The translations under genes and the position numbers were made by a program. A stretch of DNA of 64,000 bases from Gemmatales bacterium (lineage in GTDB: Bacteria > Planctomycetota > Planctomycetia > Gemmatales > HRBIN36): the NCBI GenBank assembly GCA_041640595.1, contig JBEPZY010000002.1, forward strand, positions 38,532 to 102,531, in the 5' to 3' direction. Position 1 is the stretch's first letter. Every line of letters begins with the position of its first letter. The notes under the pieces are model-generated. The model was not told the origin of the DNA. It saw nothing but the letters and a program-made list of their open reading frames with translations, and made no database searches. Of the stretch, positions 30,816-43,660 are shown piece after piece.

Positions 30816-30851
30816 CACGTTCGCTAACGCAGTCGCAACAACACTCACTTT

Positions 30852-31850
30852 CCACGGTCGGCTTACGCCAGCCGCTCCTGGTTCGGATGTGCCGATGCGT
30901 TTGCACAGTAACGCTTGTGTTCCGCCTGTTCGTTCTGCCTTGCACGATGGCTAACCACGGGGGGCTTACCCCCCCGCTCTAGCGTTGCGGTGCGGACGTC
31001 TGCCGGCGAAAAAAACGATTTTTGCGATATGCGAACGCACATTCACAAGAGCGGCGGGCGTCAGCCCGCCGTGGTACCGAAAAACGCATGTGCAACGGCG
31101 ATCATCTATGGCCGGGTGATTGCGTTTCTCGCGCATGACCGACACCGGCACCACGGTCGACTCACGCCAGCCGCTCCTGGTTCGGATGTGCCGATGCGTT
31201 TGCACAGTAACGCTTGTGTTCCGCCTGTTCGTTCTGCCTTGCACGATGGCTAACCACGGGGGGCTTACGCCCCCCGCTCTTGTGTTGGTGTGCGAACGTC
31301 TGCCGGCGAAACAACGATTTTTGCGATATGCGAACGCACATTCACAAGAGCGGCGGGCGTCAGCCCGCCGTGGTGAGGGCAACGTTCTGGCACAGGAAAA
31401 CGAATGCGTCGTGCGTGGCGAGCGTCAGGATCAAGAGCGGCGGGCGTCAGCCCACCGTGGGTGGGAAAATGCGCATCGGCAGACACGAGCGCCGTTCGTC
31501 GGCAGACCGGCGACGGTGTTGTGGATCGCCGTTGCGGTCGCGGGCATCGGGGCCACGGGGCTAACGTAGCGCCAGAATCGTTCATGGGCCATACGGCTCC
31601 GGATTACAATCGCGTGCATTGGCGCCACGGGGGGCTTACGCCCCCCGCTCTTGCGTTGGTGTGCGAACGTCTGCCGGCGAAACAACGATTTTTGCGATAT
31701 GCGAACGCACATTCACAAGAGCGGCGGGCGTCAGCCCGCCGTGGTACCGAAAAACGCATGTGCAACGGCGATCGTCAATGGCCGGGTGATTGCGTTTCTC
31801 GCGGATGACCGACACCGGCACCACGGTCGGCTTACGCCAACCGCTCCTGG
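30852..31850. repeat. REP/BIME-like mosaic array 4
   Basis: Same hairpin family; REP pairs joined by the conserved GCGAACGTCTGCCGGCGAAA..GATTTTTGCGATATGCGAACGCACATT linker; contains internal block duplications. Confidence 0.9.
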
Positions 31851-31911: not shown

Positions 31912-32064
31912 TGGGGCTAGCGACGGGGTTCGGCCGCGAAACTTTTTATGTGTGATGTGATTCGGATTGCCGGCCTAGAGCTGGCGGTGGGATTCGAACG
32001 TGAAGACTTTATGCCTGCGATGTGATTCGGATTGCCAAACTAGAGCTAGCGGTGGGATTCGAAC
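31912..32064 (-). repeat. Tandem ~65-bp units each carrying a copy of the tRNA-Thr 3' end
   Basis: TAGAGCT(A/G)GCGGTGGGATTCGAAC at 32041 (in the tRNA) and at 31976; degenerate TGGGGCTAGCGACGGGGTTCGGCC at 31912; shared flank ACTTT..ATG..GATGTGATTCGGATTGCC. Confidence 0.8.
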
Positions 32065-32115
32065 CCACAACCTGCGGTTTACAAAACCGCTGCTCTACCG
32101 TTGAGCTACGCTAGC
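32044..32115 (-). tRNA. tRNA-Thr (anticodon UGU), CCA not encoded
   Basis: Reverse complement GCTAGCG-TA-GCTC-AACGGTA-GAGC-A-GCGGT-TTTGTAA-ACCGC-AGGTT-GTGGG-TTCGAAT-CCCAC-CGCTAGC-T folds as a canonical cloverleaf. Confidence 0.97.
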
Positions 32116-35343: not shown

Positions 35344-35707
35344 GCCGACAGGTGCCTGACGTGGTGCCAGTCCATCGCCGGGCAAGAGACGGCAGGTGTC
35401 AGTTCACCGACAATGCTGCGAGGAATGCGTCAGCCTGCCGGGATGCTCGGCATCTTGCCGCGGTGATCGGCTGAGCGCTGCGTCGGGAGAATAGGGAAGT
35501 ACGGTGCGAATCCGTCGCGGGGCCGCCGCTGTGTTCGGCCAGGCTCCACGGCTGGGGTAGCCCGAACGGGACTATCCGGCCACTGCGGTCTGTGCGTGGC
35601 GAACCAGTCTCCGCATCGGCAGGAGGCATTCGCCATGGACACGTTTGCCGTGGGAAGGCTGTCGTGGGGCCGCTATGAGCCGTCAGCCAGAAGACCTGCC
35701 TGTCGGC
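35344..35707 (+). ncRNA. Cobalamin (AdoCbl-type) riboswitch aptamer with extended P2
   Basis: P1 GCCGACAGG (35344-35352) pairs with CCTGTCGGC (35699-35707); AATAGGGAA; ACGG-TGCGAAT-CCGT; P5 GCGG-GGCCG-CCGC; GCCACTG; GGGAAG; B12 box GCCAGAAGACCTGCC. Confidence 0.92.
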
Positions 35708-35746
35708 GTCGGCAATCCACGGTGGGGAATGTCTCCGCTGTGGGGA

Positions 35747-35870
35747 GGATGCTTCGGCCCTCAAGCATCCGGCGGACGCGCGACTTTCTGCCAAACCCGG
35801 GCCGCGTCGGCGCCTCGGGGGCCGAAGCAGTATGCTTCCTGAAGCCCGGCCCGGCAGAAAGGAGCGTGTC
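35747..35870 (+). promoter_or_regulatory. Riboswitch expression platform (P13, anti-SD and alternative helix)
   Basis: P13 GGATGCTT-CGGCCCTC-AAGCATCC (35747-35770). Anti-SD GACGCGC..CTTTCTGCC (35775-35792) pairs with GGCAGAAAG-GA-GCGTGTC (35853-35870), covering AGGAG. A competing 11-bp helix forms between 35750-35760 and 35819-35829. Confidence 0.8.
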
Positions 35871-36797
35871 ATGCTGCACTGCTTCCTGTGCTCCCACTGC
35901 GCTTCTGTCCTACGCACGTCACAAGTGGACGTGGATTATGCTCGCCGGCTCGTCAAGCGGTCAACGGATCGCGTCCCGGCAACGTGTTCCCACCGGTTGT
36001 TCAGGTGGCGGAGCGGTTTTACGCTGGTGGAGCTGCTGGTGGTGATTGCCATCATTGGGCTGTTGATGGCCCTGTTGCTCCCGGCGATACAACGGGCCCG
36101 CGAAGCTGCCAACCGTGCCCGCTGTGCCAACAACCTCCGTCAGCTGCTCATCGCCGCCCATAACTACGCCACCGCGAACAGCGACGTCCTGCCGCCCGGA
36201 CTGATCAGCGACACCAGCGGCAATACCTACTGGTTCGGCAAAACGTTACCGGGTTCGCCTCTGGGTACGGTGGATGTGACCCAGGGCTGGCTCACCCCGT
36301 ATTACGAACGCAATCGGCAGGTCACCATGTGCCCGAATTTTCCCAGGGATCGCGTGGTGCTCAAGTACGAAGGAGGCACGGGTGGCTACGGTTACAACTA
36401 CAAATACCTGGCTCCAATCAGCTGGGCGAATCAGAGCGGCACCTGGATCACGCAGTGGACGCCGATCACCCTCGGCCAGGTTCAGGCCACCAGCCGCACC
36501 ATTGCCTTCACCGACAGCCTTGGCACCGACACGTTCTCGGCTGGGACGCCCAGCAATCCAGCGCTGATTGAAGTGCCGCTTATTGAACCGCCCAGCGGAC
36601 GTTATCCGACGGTGCATTTTCGGCATGGCGGCGGACGGGTGGCGAATGTGGCGTTCCTGGACGGCCACGTGGAAGGATTTTCCCCAGGCACCCGCAATCC
36701 CGCCGCACCGTGGGACCCACCGTCGCTTACCGCTTTCCGCGACCAGTGGAGCATCTTCGACATCGGCACCAACGACGAACTCTGGGACCGCGAATAA
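35871..36797 (+). CDS. DUF1559 prepilin-type N-terminal cleavage/methylation domain protein
   Basis: [45 protein letters not shown]-terminal [17 protein letters not shown] (H-X9-DG-type motif); AGGAG upstream of ATG 35871. Confidence 0.94.
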
Positions 36798-36861: not shown

Positions 36862-37403
36862 TGCGGCGGGCTCACGCCCCGCGACAACTTCTTCAAATTG
36901 GAAGTAAACGACACTCTGCCAAGTCCTGTTTCCCAATCCCACGGCGGGCTGACGCCCGCCGCTCTTGTGAATGTGCGTTCGCATATCGCAAAATCGCCGT
37001 TTCTCCGGCGAGCGGACACCATGCACCAAGAGCGGTCGGCGTAAGCCGACCGTGGAGCCCCAGCGACTCAGTTCACAAAAACCACCTGCATCTGCAAGTG
37101 CGTTACCGAACCACGGCGGGCTCACGCCCGCCGCTCTTGTGAATGTGCGTTCGCATATCGCAAAATCGCCGTTTCTCCGGCGAGCGGACACCATGCACCA
37201 AGAGCGGTCGGCGTAAGCCGACCGTGGAGCCCCAGCGACTCAGTTCACAAAAACCACCTGCATCTGCAAGTGCGTTACCGAACCACGGCGGGCTCACGCC
37301 CGCCGCTCCTGATTGTGGCGGCGACAGTTGCCGAACATTACGCAATTCTTCTCGCACACCGTGCGTAATGCGAACCACGGCGGGCTGACGCCCGCCGCTC
37401 TTG
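36862..37403. repeat. REP/BIME-like mosaic array 5
   Basis: Same hairpin family, including the stem variant CGGTCGGC-GTAA-GCCGACCG; near-exact ~172-bp tandem duplication at about 36939-37110 and 37111-37282. Confidence 0.9.
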
Positions 37404-37525
37404 ATCCTCGGAGTGATGTCGCTTCACCGACTGGCTCGGAATAGCGGCCGGAAGTGCGACTACTGATTCACGGCTAACGCTTGGGGCGAACGCTCGCGCT
37501 TGCTGATGGAACGACGCTGGCGACG

Positions 37526-38626
37526 CTAAACCTGGTACACGCTTTGCCAGGCGTGGCCGCGATGTCCGAACCCCAGCCGATCCGGATGCAGCATCTCCGC
37601 CAGAATTTCGACGGACTCGGCCAGACGTGGGCCGGGACGGTTGAAGTACTGGTTGCCGTCCGCGACAAAGACCTGGCGATGCCGCACTGCGTAGAGGTGC
37701 TGCCAGCCAGGCAATCGCTCCAGAACATGGATTTCCTGCAAGCTGCGCTGCATGTCCCAGCCGCACGGTATCAGGATGATGACTTCCGGATCGGCCTGGA
37801 CTAAATCCTGGTAACGAAGATAGGCCGAAGGTTTGCCGGCTTCGTCAAGAACAGGCACGCCACCGGCCAGGTGAACTAATTCCGGCATCCAGTTGCCCGC
37901 ACCCATAAGCGGATCAAGCCATTCCAGGCAGATGACAGTGGGACGATGGGCGTTCCTGGGCAAGACCAGGTTCACCTGCTGCATACGTTGCTTCAGGCGG
38001 GCGACAAGTTGCTCGGCTTTCTCGCTCGCGCCCAGGGCATTGCCGATGTCGAGCATTCCCTGCCAGACGTCAGCCAGAGAATGCGGCTTGAGGGCAACGA
38101 TGGTCGGTGGGCCGGAAGGTAGTTCCTCGGTGTCCTGCACGGCGAGGCGCTCAGTTGGGAAGTGGCCGGCACCCTGATGCGTTGCTCCATCCGTTGCTGC
38201 GGCATTCGGGGTGGATTCGGGACTGGCGGAATCCGCAAAACTCGCCGCTATTTCGTTCCCATCCGAAACCGGAGCCGGCATGTTCCACGTACAAATGGCC
38301 TGTTCTACATCGCGGAGACTGACGGCGCAGACCTCGCAATGATCCTGGGTAACGATCACTGTCGGGCGGAGCAGCCGCAGCAGTTCGGCATTGATCCAGT
38401 AAACCGGTTCGCCACGCCGGACTACCTCGCGTACCTGTTCGTCAATGGCACGACTGTTTCCGGAAACGTCAATGCGTGGCCCGGTCAGTACGGGCAGGCG
38501 TTCGACTTCCGGGGGATAATCGCACTCATGCGATCGGCCCACCAGAAACCGGCCCATACCCAGGGCGTAGATGGTTTCGGTAGCGCTGGCCAGTAACGAG
38601 ACGATTCGCGGCTGCATGTTTGGCAT
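37526..38626 (-). CDS. BtuF-like cobalamin/Fe-siderophore substrate-binding family protein
   Basis: RIVSLLASATE..ALG..LVGRSHECDYP, TQDHCEVCAV, LEWLDPLMGAGNWMPE, DGNQYFNRPGPRL; no obvious signal peptide. Confidence 0.85.
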   Translation of the reverse strand: MPNMQPRIVSLLASATETIYALGMGRFLVGRSHECDYPPEVERLPVLTGPRIDVSGNSRAIDEQVREVVRRGEPVYWINAELLRLLRPTVIVTQDHCEVCAVSLRDVEQAICTWNMPAPVSDGNEIAASFADSASPESTPNAAATDGATHQGAGHFPTERLAVQDTEELPSGPPTIVALKPHSLADVWQGMLDIGNALGASEKAEQLVARLKQRMQQVNLVLPRNAHRPTVICLEWLDPLMGAGNWMPELVHLAGGVPVLDEAGKPSAYLRYQDLVQADPEVIILIPCGWDMQRSLQEIHVLERLPGWQHLYAVRHRQVFVADGNQYFNRPGPRLAESVEILAEMLHPDRLGFGHRGHAWQSVYQV

Positions 38627-41613: not shown

Positions 41614-42031
41614 GGCTGACTCCTTGGTGAGTCTGGCGACGCTCTGCCCAAACCATATCCCGCCACCCAGCGCCCGGCCAGCATTCCCGCTCAGAGAGTG
41701 GGAACGCGCTTGCTCTGTCGAAAACATAGTTGCGTGTGGGCGCAAACTAACGGCGAACGGCGTAAGCCACCACCCGCAGAGCCACTTCATTGTTCAACGT
41801 CCTCTCCCGCCACGTCCTCAACTGTGGCTGACAGTGTAGCGCCTGGCTACCAAGTTAACTCTACCGCCGCGCCGTCCACCGCGACTCAGTGCTACGCTCC
41901 AACCCACTGATGAACGATTCCACGTGCCAAAACCATTTCACTACCAACCTCGTCCTTAACTAAGTAAGATGGCGCCGCGAACCTTTCCGAGTGGCCCCAT
42001 TGGGCCGACAATTCAAGTAAGGAGAGCAGCT

Positions 42032-43660
42032 ATGTGTGGGAAGCTGCGAGGCAGAATGGCAACGGTGATGTTGGTTGGGATGATGCTCGGCATAGCGAGG
42101 GTTTTCCTCGCGGCCCAGGAACCGCCCGAACAAGAGGCGAAGCCTGTTGCCCAAGCGCCGGCGGAACAAAAGCCGACACCCTTGCCGGAGGCCATTGAAA
42201 AAGCCTGGGCCGCTGCCGGAGCCGAAATCGGCTGGATGCGAATACGAATGCAAATTGATGAGCAGCTCTGGCGCGCTCCTGGGTATACGCTCATGTTCGT
42301 GCCCCGAGATGAGGGTCAGAAGGGGGACATTCCCGCGTTTCGGCTTCGGGCTTGGCAGGCGGGGTTGCTTCCTAAGCTCCCAGAACCACAAGTCCCCTTT
42401 GGTCTGGACCTCACCGAGCTACCGTTGACCGACAGATGGCTGGTGGATTTGCGAGATCTGAAGAATCTGCAAGCATTGAATTTGGGCGGCAGGCAGGTAA
42501 CGGACGCGGGGCTGAAGGAACTGGCGGCACTGAAGAACCTGCAATGGCTGAACCTGTGGGGCGCGCGGATAACGGACGCGGGGCTGAAGGAACTGGCGGC
42601 GCTGAAGAACTTGCAATGGCTGAGCCTGGGCTGCACGCAGATAACGGATGCGGGGCTGAAGAAACTGGCGGCACTGAAGTACCTGCAATGGCTGGACTTG
42701 TCCCGGACGCAGGTAACGGACGCGGGGCTGAAGGAACTGGCGGCGCTGAAGAACTTGCAATGGCTGAGCCTGTGGGGCGCGCAGATAACCGACGCGGGGC
42801 TGAAGGAACTGGCAGCACTGAAGAGCCTGCAAACGCTCTACTTGGCGGCCACGAAGATAACGGACGCGGGGCTGAAGGAACTGGCGGCACTGAAGAACCT
42901 GCAAGGGCTAGACTTGGCCTTCACGAAGATAACGAACGTGGGGCTGAAGGAACTGGCGGCACTGAAGAACTTGCAAGGGCTGGACTTGGCGGCCACGAAG
43001 ATAACGAACGCGGGACTCAACGAACTGGCGGCACTGAATAACCTGCAATGGCTGAGCCTGTGCGAAACGAAGATCACCGACGCGGGGCTGAAGAAACTGG
43101 CGGCATTGAAGAACTTGCAATGGCTGAGCCTGGGCGAAACGAAGATAACCGACGCGGGGCTGAAGGAGCTGGCGGCACTGAAGAACCTGCAATGGCTGAA
43201 CTTGGCCTGGACGCAGATAACCGATGCTGGGCTGAAGGAACTTGCCGGACTGAAGCTGAAAGACTTGTCAATCCCCGACGCTGCTCAAACCGACCTGGGG
43301 CTGAAGCATTACCTGGCGCTGATCGAACGGCCGACGACATTGGACTTGAGATGCTGGCGAGTGACGGACGCGGGGCTGAAGGAACTGGCGGGACTGAACA
43401 ACCTGCAAACTCTGAACCTGAGCAAGACGCACATAACCGACGCGGGGCTGAAGGAGCTGGCCGGACTGAAGAACCTGCAATGGCTGAGCCTGGCATGCAC
43501 GGAGATAACCGACGCGGGGCTGAAGGAACTGGCGGCACTGAACAACCTGCAGGTATTGTTCCTCAACGAGGGCGTAACCGGACCTGGGGTCGAGGAATTG
43601 CGAAAGGCACTCCCGAAATGCGTCATCGACAGACTCGTCCCATTCAGGACCGGCGACTGA
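42032..43660 (+). CDS. Secreted leucine-rich-repeat protein A (24-aa LRRs)
   Basis: AAGGAG RBS; signal peptide; about 15 repeats LKELAALKNLQxLxLxxTxITDAG; C-cap VEELRKALPKC. Confidence 0.92.
   Translation: MCGKLRGRMATVMLVGMMLGIARVFLAAQEPPEQEAKPVAQAPAEQKPTPLPEAIEKAWAAAGAEIGWMRIRMQIDEQLWRAPGYTLMFVPRDEGQKGDIPAFRLRAWQAGLLPKLPEPQVPFGLDLTELPLTDRWLVDLRDLKNLQALNLGGRQVTDAGLKELAALKNLQWLNLWGARITDAGLKELAALKNLQWLSLGCTQITDAGLKKLAALKYLQWLDLSRTQVTDAGLKELAALKNLQWLSLWGAQITDAGLKELAALKSLQTLYLAATKITDAGLKELAALKNLQGLDLAFTKITNVGLKELAALKNLQGLDLAATKITNAGLNELAALNNLQWLSLCETKITDAGLKKLAALKNLQWLSLGETKITDAGLKELAALKNLQWLNLAWTQITDAGLKELAGLKLKDLSIPDAAQTDLGLKHYLALIERPTTLDLRCWRVTDAGLKELAGLNNLQTLNLSKTHITDAGLKELAGLKNLQWLSLACTEITDAGLKELAALNNLQVLFLNEGVTGPGVEELRKALPKCVIDRLVPFRTGD

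Follow-up and report, generated by a model that had tools for sequence, protein, structure and literature searches.

A cobalamin riboswitch upstream of a divergent DUF1559-related pilin gene in planctomycetes

The leader of Escherichia coli btuB is a cobalamin riboswitch with an L5-L13 kissing loop and sequestration of the ribosome-binding site (RBS), and the vitamin is taken up by BtuB-TonB and BtuFCD. Systems of the btuB type are also covered in the available part of PMC13616437. In Bacteroides, the lipoproteins BtuG, BtuH and BtuJ form a surface capture relay that feeds BtuB (available parts of PMC13616437 and of bioRxiv 10.1101/2025.08.21.671476). Here, we describe a locus that resembles these systems only in part. 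It lies in a stretch of 64,000 nucleotides from a Gemmatales bacterium (the window), where a cobalamin aptamer directly precedes a gene for a pilin-like protein. Like the btuB leader, it has L5-L13 and RBS sequestration, and the gene is the first of operons with BtuF, BtuC and BtuD in relatives. Unlike btuB, this first gene encodes a pilin-like protein and not a TonB-dependent barrel, and no such barrel was found in this genome. The likeness to BtuG, BtuH and BtuJ is that of envelope accessory proteins controlled by a riboswitch, with DUF4465 and BtuH-like domains in the operons of relatives. Yet, these partners have PEP-CTERM or dockerin-like tails, and the operons contain a pilin and no BtuB.

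Other described systems resemble the locus in design. The bindosome of Sulfolobales (PMC13705601, in its available part) has a substrate-regulated pilin-type N-terminus, is linked to a transporter and lies away from the shared type 4 filament machine. It is however archaeal, made of sugar-binding ABC folds in cells lacking an outer membrane, whereas the system described here is bacterial, with a pilin-derived head and a putative vitamin substrate. The pilin fold also serves capture or attachment in minor pilins that bind ligands, for example Neisseria ComP, and in Akkermansia MUL2 (PMC13174399, available part), and ComP is among the structural matches of our head (Z 4.5). But these pilins take DNA or mucin and have no riboswitch control, and our protein has no sequence match to any solved chain. 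Dextran binds pili-like fibres of planctomycetes (PMC5394234, available part). The DUF1559/SBP_bac_10 family is expanded in these bacteria, with neither function nor ligand given in the available parts of PMC8567305 and PMC10632474; it is the largest paralog group of Planctopirus limnophila, without known function in the latter. By analogy, the locus recalls the btuB leader in how it is regulated and placed, and the bindosome in its design, and it is a member of neither: its product is a divergent DUF1559-related pilin.

Our literature search, which stopped short of subscription papers, regulon databases and bioRxiv supplements (where pilin neighbours of DUF4465 may be recorded), returned no report of a riboswitch paired with DUF1559 or a pilin. 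The available text of PMC13616437 contains neither 'pilin' nor 'Planctomycet', that of bioRxiv 10.1101/2025.08.21.671476 does not mention 'pilin', and the available parts of PMC2667541, PMC5352709 and PMC13174399 contain nothing on the pairing.

The leader and its computed switch

The leader comprises the following features, all on the plus strand.

35344..35707, +, cobalamin riboswitch aptamer with large insertions, about 364 nt (RF00174 at 35451-35717, fold z -4.4)
35521..35525, +, L5 loop GGCCG, kissing-loop partner of L13
35747..35770, +, hairpin P13, its loop L13 being CGGCC (35755-35759); L001, L028 and L003 have this hairpin too
35784..35804, +, anti-SD arm, pairing with 35847-35861 and flanking bases and burying the RBS when P13 is formed (compensatory version in L003)
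35817..35829, +, anti-P13 arm, partner of 35750-35762 in the ON state inferred for the ligand-free leader (L003 and L001 show compensatory changes)
35860..35864, +, Shine-Dalgarno (SD) sequence AGGAG

The first-pass annotation had placed a cobalamin aptamer directly upstream of a DUF1559-type gene and had named Infernal with RF00174 as the way to check it. The covariance model matches the window at 35451-35717 (+) with 55.9 bits (E 3.5e-11) against a gathering score of 31.5, and this match is the sole one in the genome (cmsearch with 150 of 329 candidates scored, and an nhmmer profile). The only other Rfam match in the window is one tRNA. Upon folding, the aptamer exceeds the Rfam match: 35344-35352 pairs with 35699-35707 to form P1, so that the start originally given, 35344, is right. 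The score is modest because of the long insertions. The core motifs of the aptamer are intact, and the 386-nt region folds at z = -4.4 relative to 100 shuffles.

The elements of the switch were also found where they had been placed. L5 is complementary to L13, P13 lies downstream of the aptamer, and the 11-bp helix 35750-35760/35819-35829 grows to 13 bp when G-U pairs are counted. The logic proposed for them, in which P13 leads to burial of the RBS and the anti-P13 helix to its opening, agrees with the computed energies: opening the RBS costs 16.5 kcal/mol with P13 forced versus 5.6 with the anti-P13 helix forced. The direction is the same in all four relatives modelled in both states (P13/anti-P13 forced: L001 16.4/4.1, L028 16.8/4.4, L003 17.3/5.5, L213 12.5/6.3); L211 and L214 fitted no two-state model. 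In L003, both the anti-P13 and the anti-SD helices are kept through compensatory changes. The isolated expression platform without ligand is computed to prefer the OFF fold by about 9 kcal/mol. A perfect L5-L13 match within a hairpin of at least six pairs is present in only 4 of 21 leaders, and covariation of L5 with L13 across the clade was not demonstrable, the leaders with L5 TCCCG or CCCCG having no perfect strong-hairpin partner within 150 nt. Given the forced-fold energies, the compensatory changes, the OFF preference and the few L5 partners, we regard the leader as a translational OFF switch that is computed and conserved among close relatives. A first fold, on a longer stretch, paired much of the SD in both states and was replaced by the opening-energy calculation.

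We found no sigma-70 promoter and no terminator on the plus strand. In two metatranscriptome studies of hot springs, RNA contigs start at 35354 and 35362 where a DNA run continues past, a weak hint that the transcript starts near the aptamer. An expression ranking from RNA contigs was abandoned, as X15 covers intergenic DNA evenly, and a reading of repression from X16 and X17, with deeper leader contigs and thin cover elsewhere, was not accepted as evidence.

The pilin clade and its association with the riboswitch

35871..36797, +, prepilin/DUF1559-like gene, 308 aa, with a 49-aa leader, a class III cleavage site at G49|F50, E at +5, a pilin helix and a conserved head (including C85 and C154)

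The ATG at 35871 is the only in-frame start with an SD. The protein has a class III signal (TIGR02532, 28.7 against a cut-off of 16.3; PF07963, N_methyl, 28.1 against 21.2), and F+1 and E+5 of the cleavage motif are invariant in 22 of 22 aligned sequences. With the DUF1559/SBP_bac_10 proteins of planctomycetes described in the available parts of PMC8567305 and PMC10632474 it shares N_methyl and PF07596 above cut-off and a C-terminal H-X-DG motif, the latter called by eye because the NCBIfam H-X9-DG model is not among its matches. The DUF1559 label is correct in that PF07596 scores 42.5 bits against the Pfam cut-off of 23.3, and goes too far as a full-length assignment, for unlike in typical members only model positions 1-61 of 268 match. 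PF00593 is absent from the protein, which is not a TonB-dependent barrel with a plug. The genome holds 28 PF07596 matches, and just one of them has the single riboswitch. In a tree of 100 pilins (FastTree, unrooted, displayed with midpoint rooting and no clade test) the clade of the 308-aa protein is separate from 21 paralogs of its own genome, which were picked by motif and score about 0 with the clade profile A2. The clade is usually single-copy per genome.

The soluble part of the protein models at pLDDT 94.7 (94 sequences). Its best structural match is a pilin (Z 5.5, rmsd 3.0, 100 residues), within the range of common arrangements. The 19 highest rows in VIA contain only pilins or pilus proteins, and the best of these matches, to type IV pilins and pseudopilins, have low Z. 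Foldseek against the PDB gave nothing at E 0.001 with either model, and a profile of 94 heads matched no solved chain. The models suggest a pilin-like core; since the best pilin matches have low Z over 100 residues, about half of the modelled head is without a solved counterpart. Known B12-binding folds are absent from the VIA, Foldseek and profile lists, an absence that does not exclude binding. Across 66 members, counted without the riboswitch-less and unknown sets, C85 is retained in 92% and C154 in 98%; for 21 riboswitch-less members the figure is 43%. The head also has conserved His, Asp and Glu residues, and its conserved positions include W121, N176, E234, H249 and R251. The ESM Atlas contains unnamed clusters only, most commonly from Verrucomicrobiota, one of them with PF07596 in 12% of its members. 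A complex predicted between the pilin head and the BtuH-like domain of the fusion protein P0012 (score 0.14, mark 0.32) gives no answer and counts neither for nor against the reading.

The first-pass annotation suggested surveying riboswitch linkage across planctomycetes, and the survey upheld the pairing. A gene-first GTDB set comprises 28 loci from Gemmatales, Singulisphaera, Kolteria, Planctomycetaceae and one Verrucomicrobia MAG. In 21 of these, RF00174 is found upstream in the same orientation as the gene, or in 21 of 23 once one non-member (L027) and four contig-cut loci (L011, L014, L018, L022) are set aside; L011 carries the 3' half of an aptamer. Two testable loci, L006 and L013, have no riboswitch. 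In the phylum sample the clade is present in 20 of 151 genomes, with one match each, and 16 of the 20 are riboswitch-linked within 3.5 kb. The class sample has 83 clade matches in 74 of 150 genomes, of which 62 matches in 60 genomes are linked (59 by listed coordinates and 3 on fetching). The 21 unlinked matches include 2 at contig edges, 7 in one genus (5 fetched), 2 singletons and 10 in close relatives from the window's own order, where 7 of the genomes have another clade copy with a riboswitch. Among metagenome loci with at least 700 nt upstream, a count that excludes 31 of 80 loci for short upstream DNA and includes a few near-duplicates, the riboswitch occurs in 31 of 36 when the A2 score is at least 50 and in none of the 13 low-scoring paralog loci (A2 <50). 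Because the searches score the best 15-20 candidates per genome, some riboswitches may have been missed.

Family f73, which is without TonB receptors, has no matches to the window's clade (0 of 36). In 7 of the 17 f73 loci fetched, the gene after the riboswitch belongs to a separate and typical DUF1559 clade, frequently together with DUF4465, and this clade precedes CobN in L191 (second-clade f73 loci in the tree: L187, L191, L193, L195, L197, L198, L200, L201). Since this clade also lies behind riboswitches, pilins seem to have been recruited to B12 control at least twice. The functional handle that the locus was thought to give on DUF1559 proteins holds for the window's divergent clade and one second clade, and not for the whole family.

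Some clade members merit separate mention. A riboswitch-less sub-branch (L165-L174) has lost both conserved cysteines and has an altered HFRH motif, making it a natural control for binding tests. At L006 1829-7786, a member without a riboswitch stands behind a ZnuA/ABC operon divergent from cobW, which might reflect re-use for zinc or another metal. Its contig is titled Alcaligenaceae, and a 51%-identical member in L013 is on a contig titled Pseudobdellovibrionaceae; transfer and mis-binning are both possible for the two loci.

Operon partners, host genome and TonB receptors

37526..38626, -, convergent BtuF-like (Peripla_BP_2) gene, no signal peptide evident; its homologues in relatives lie within the riboswitch operon

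The pilin gene had been described as stand-alone, which is right for the transcription unit and misses the convergent BtuF-like gene, a homologue of operon partners in relatives that is probably part of the same pathway. In the GTDB loci, the genes that follow the pilin code for BtuF-FecCD-ABC (scanned in L004, by homology in L005 and L009, in part in L008), DUF6580, an ATP pyrophosphatase of PF01902, a small lipoprotein-like CxxC protein and the homologue of this BtuF-like protein. The pilin gene is often directly before BtuF/BtuCD or DUF6580. A riboswitch-first set consists of 130 phylum loci with up to 6.5 kb downstream, drawn from the best 150 of 213 matches (63 weaker ones left out) after 20 tandem or neighbouring copies or contig-start cases were dropped. 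Several of the riboswitch pilin loci open with PEP-CTERM proteins, either DUF4465 or a family matching PDB 8BLW chain B, and such a partner is found in 9 of 19 pilin loci (8, and L114 on a by-eye call of its PEP-CTERM-like tail). The DUF4465 partner matches PDB 9HMU (E 3.9e-29), and DUF4465 binds B12 in Coraliomargarita and in the planctomycete Mucisphaera according to the available part of bioRxiv 10.1101/2025.08.21.671476. A 14-sequence profile of the other family, c8, matches residues 390-497 of 8BLW chain B (E 7.5e-8), and a single c8 protein found no BtuH-like structure. The PDB entry is labelled YncE family; we take the chain to be BtuGH and these residues to be its BtuH domain. The riboswitch pilin loci examined contain no pilus genes, and CbiM is in none of the 19.

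We also found 15 longer forms of the pilin. A PF01902-type ATPase is fused ahead of the prepilin leader in nine (P0004-P0011, P0013), and three others are annotated alike; two of these three, P0012 and P0015, carry in front of the pilin a BtuH-like domain and a helix of PEP-CTERM-like character.

Other recurrent neighbours of cobalamin riboswitches were observed. The PF01902 (diphthine-ammonia-ligase-like) ATP pyrophosphatase recurs in B12 operons (also at L069:1707-2405) and is possibly a corrinoid-modifying enzyme. BtuF-like proteins that carry an RSHECD motif and show no clear signal peptide (37526-38626; L021, L022, L023, L063) travel with DUF6580, a gene content suggestive of a corrinoid binder in the cytoplasm that partners a small transporter in the membrane. 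Four families of secreted proteins, 450-600 aa long and without Pfam match (clusters c5, c7, c14 and c19; L031, L033, L074, L107 and loci related to them), are encoded immediately after cobalamin riboswitches, in 16, 11, 6 and 6 genomes respectively, and are candidates for undescribed B12 binders.

The host genome (4.45 Mb, 95.5% complete) has genes for a B12-dependent acyl-CoA mutase of the split type together with MeaB, for a B12-binding radical SAM protein and for MetE. Genome searches found no CbiC, CobU, CobT, CobS, CobC, CobN or CbiM, no BtuC, DUF4465 or BtuH-like gene and, by profile, no PF00593 TonB receptor. DUF6580, the PF01902 ATPase and a BtuF-like gene are present but dispersed. 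Judged by these genes, the host apparently needs B12 and cannot make it. Its pilus machinery includes two PilB-like proteins, PilT, a PilC-like platform, three secretins and three A24 peptidases. The only B12 switch of this host sits on the pilin, and the standard outer-membrane importer was not found.

TonB receptors and the pilin tend to occupy different loci: among the 130 riboswitch loci a TonB receptor is present in 34, the pilin in 19 and both in none. At the level of genomes, 17 of 20 clade-positive genomes of the phylum sample lack a TonB receptor, versus 22 of 131 others, a strong anti-correlation, and the link is weak in the class sample (61 of 74 versus 52 of 76); both contrasts are confounded by kinship, as kin are not independent. 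TonB receptors are present in 13 of 74 (class) and 3 of 20 (phylum) clade-positive genomes, G071 has both kinds of riboswitch locus, pilin-type and TonB-type, and the Verrucomicrobia genome behind L020 has TonB receptors.

The window has further features of its own. Palindromic REP-like repeats (core of about 30 nt, tandem units of 172 nt) cluster at 36935-37405, between the pilin and BtuF-like genes, and at 30850-31850, near a tRNA, and their very high summed contig depth suggests a genome-wide family. This tRNA (minus strand, 32044-32115) has anticodon UGU, thus Thr by reading, and 59 nt that take in its 3' end recur at 31941-31999 as an 85% copy, which resembles an integration scar. A 563-aa leucine-rich-repeat protein with 24-residue repeats is encoded at 41969-43660.

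A probable role in corrinoid acquisition and competing readings

A role of the pilin in acquiring or scavenging corrinoids, already proposed at first reading, has strong support from the conserved riboswitch, the operon partners and the fusions, and on this comparative evidence we hold it to be very probable. The fold, the gene position and the absent TonB receptors suggest in addition a pilus-based route replacing BtuB, for which we see an even chance. The best explanation, to which we give slightly better than even odds, would be a dedicated minor pilin or pseudopilin that scavenges corrinoids (B12) and is made under cofactor scarcity. By analogy with known cobalamin riboswitches, the bound cofactor would lock L5-L13 and P13, the anti-SD arm would bury the RBS and translation would stop; without ligand, the anti-P13 helix would open the RBS. 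A prepilin peptidase might then cleave at the predicted site G49|F50, and the mature pilin might join the PilB/PilT/PilC/secretin machine of the cell. The head would capture the corrinoid directly, or via a BtuJ- or BtuH-like partner where present, and the corrinoid would cross the outer membrane with the pilin in place of BtuB-TonB, before inner-membrane uptake by DUF6580 or BtuCD.

One might instead see the protein as a corrinoid-binding relay or reservoir, whose pilin helix anchors it to the inner membrane in a large periplasm while B12 enters by another, unregulated pore. The same regulon evidence applies, the pilin often directly precedes BtuF/BtuCD or DUF6580, pilus genes are not in the loci, and N_methyl and SBP_bac_10 proteins of Tuwongella are in detergent-soluble fractions (PMC8567305, available part). 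But the invariance of F+1 and E+5 exceeds the needs of an anchor, and passage across the outer membrane is left unexplained in genomes without TonB receptors; we find this unlikely, if the most credible of the alternatives. The operons and fusions with PEP-CTERM proteins, with a partner in 9 of 19 phylum-survey pilin loci, would also suit a dedicated pseudopilin that does not itself touch B12 and acts as an adaptor, either in type II secretion or in displaying B12-binding cargo (PEP-CTERM DUF4465, BtuH-like) at the surface. This is at odds with the presence of the pilin in this genome and many relatives where no such cargo was found, and with its being the sole gene under the only riboswitch of the genome, and we consider it improbable.

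The regulated substrate might not be a corrinoid at all. Uptake of cobalt or another metal, or B12-repressed attachment to B12-producing neighbours, would fit the L006 copy next to cobW, the second clade before CobN in L191 and the His, Asp and Glu of the head. The cobalt reading, offered as an alternative in the first-pass annotation, loses weight because the searches of this genome turned up no genes for corrin synthesis or salvage, leaving cobalt without a known sink; moreover, CbiM is missing from the pilin loci and the partners are corrinoid binders and transporters, which makes this group of readings very unlikely. That the riboswitch is a degenerate relic and the gene escapes B12 regulation could be argued from the low Rfam score, the long insertions and the OFF preference of the isolated platform, but is hardly credible with the core motifs intact and P13, anti-P13 and anti-SD conserved with compensatory changes.

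The dedicated corrinoid pilin that we favour bears on how large molecules pass the outer membrane in planctomycetes with few or no TonB receptors. The pairing, spread over planctomycetes mostly lacking the usual outer-membrane B12 importer, points to a vitamin capture route that may be undescribed. More speculatively, planctomycetes and their relatives might import B12 by a type IV filament and a secretin rather than by a TonB receptor. One general nutrient-import machine might use the dozens of DUF1559/H-X-DG pilins found in each genome as interchangeable, substrate-specific heads, with this clade as the corrinoid head. The clade is usually single-copy, is tied to a defined, coloured and purchasable ligand with a built-in inducer, and is present in cultured strains (Singulisphaera, Kolteria), making outer-membrane import and DUF1559 function directly testable. 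If true, which we advance only tentatively, this would be a new class of outer-membrane import.
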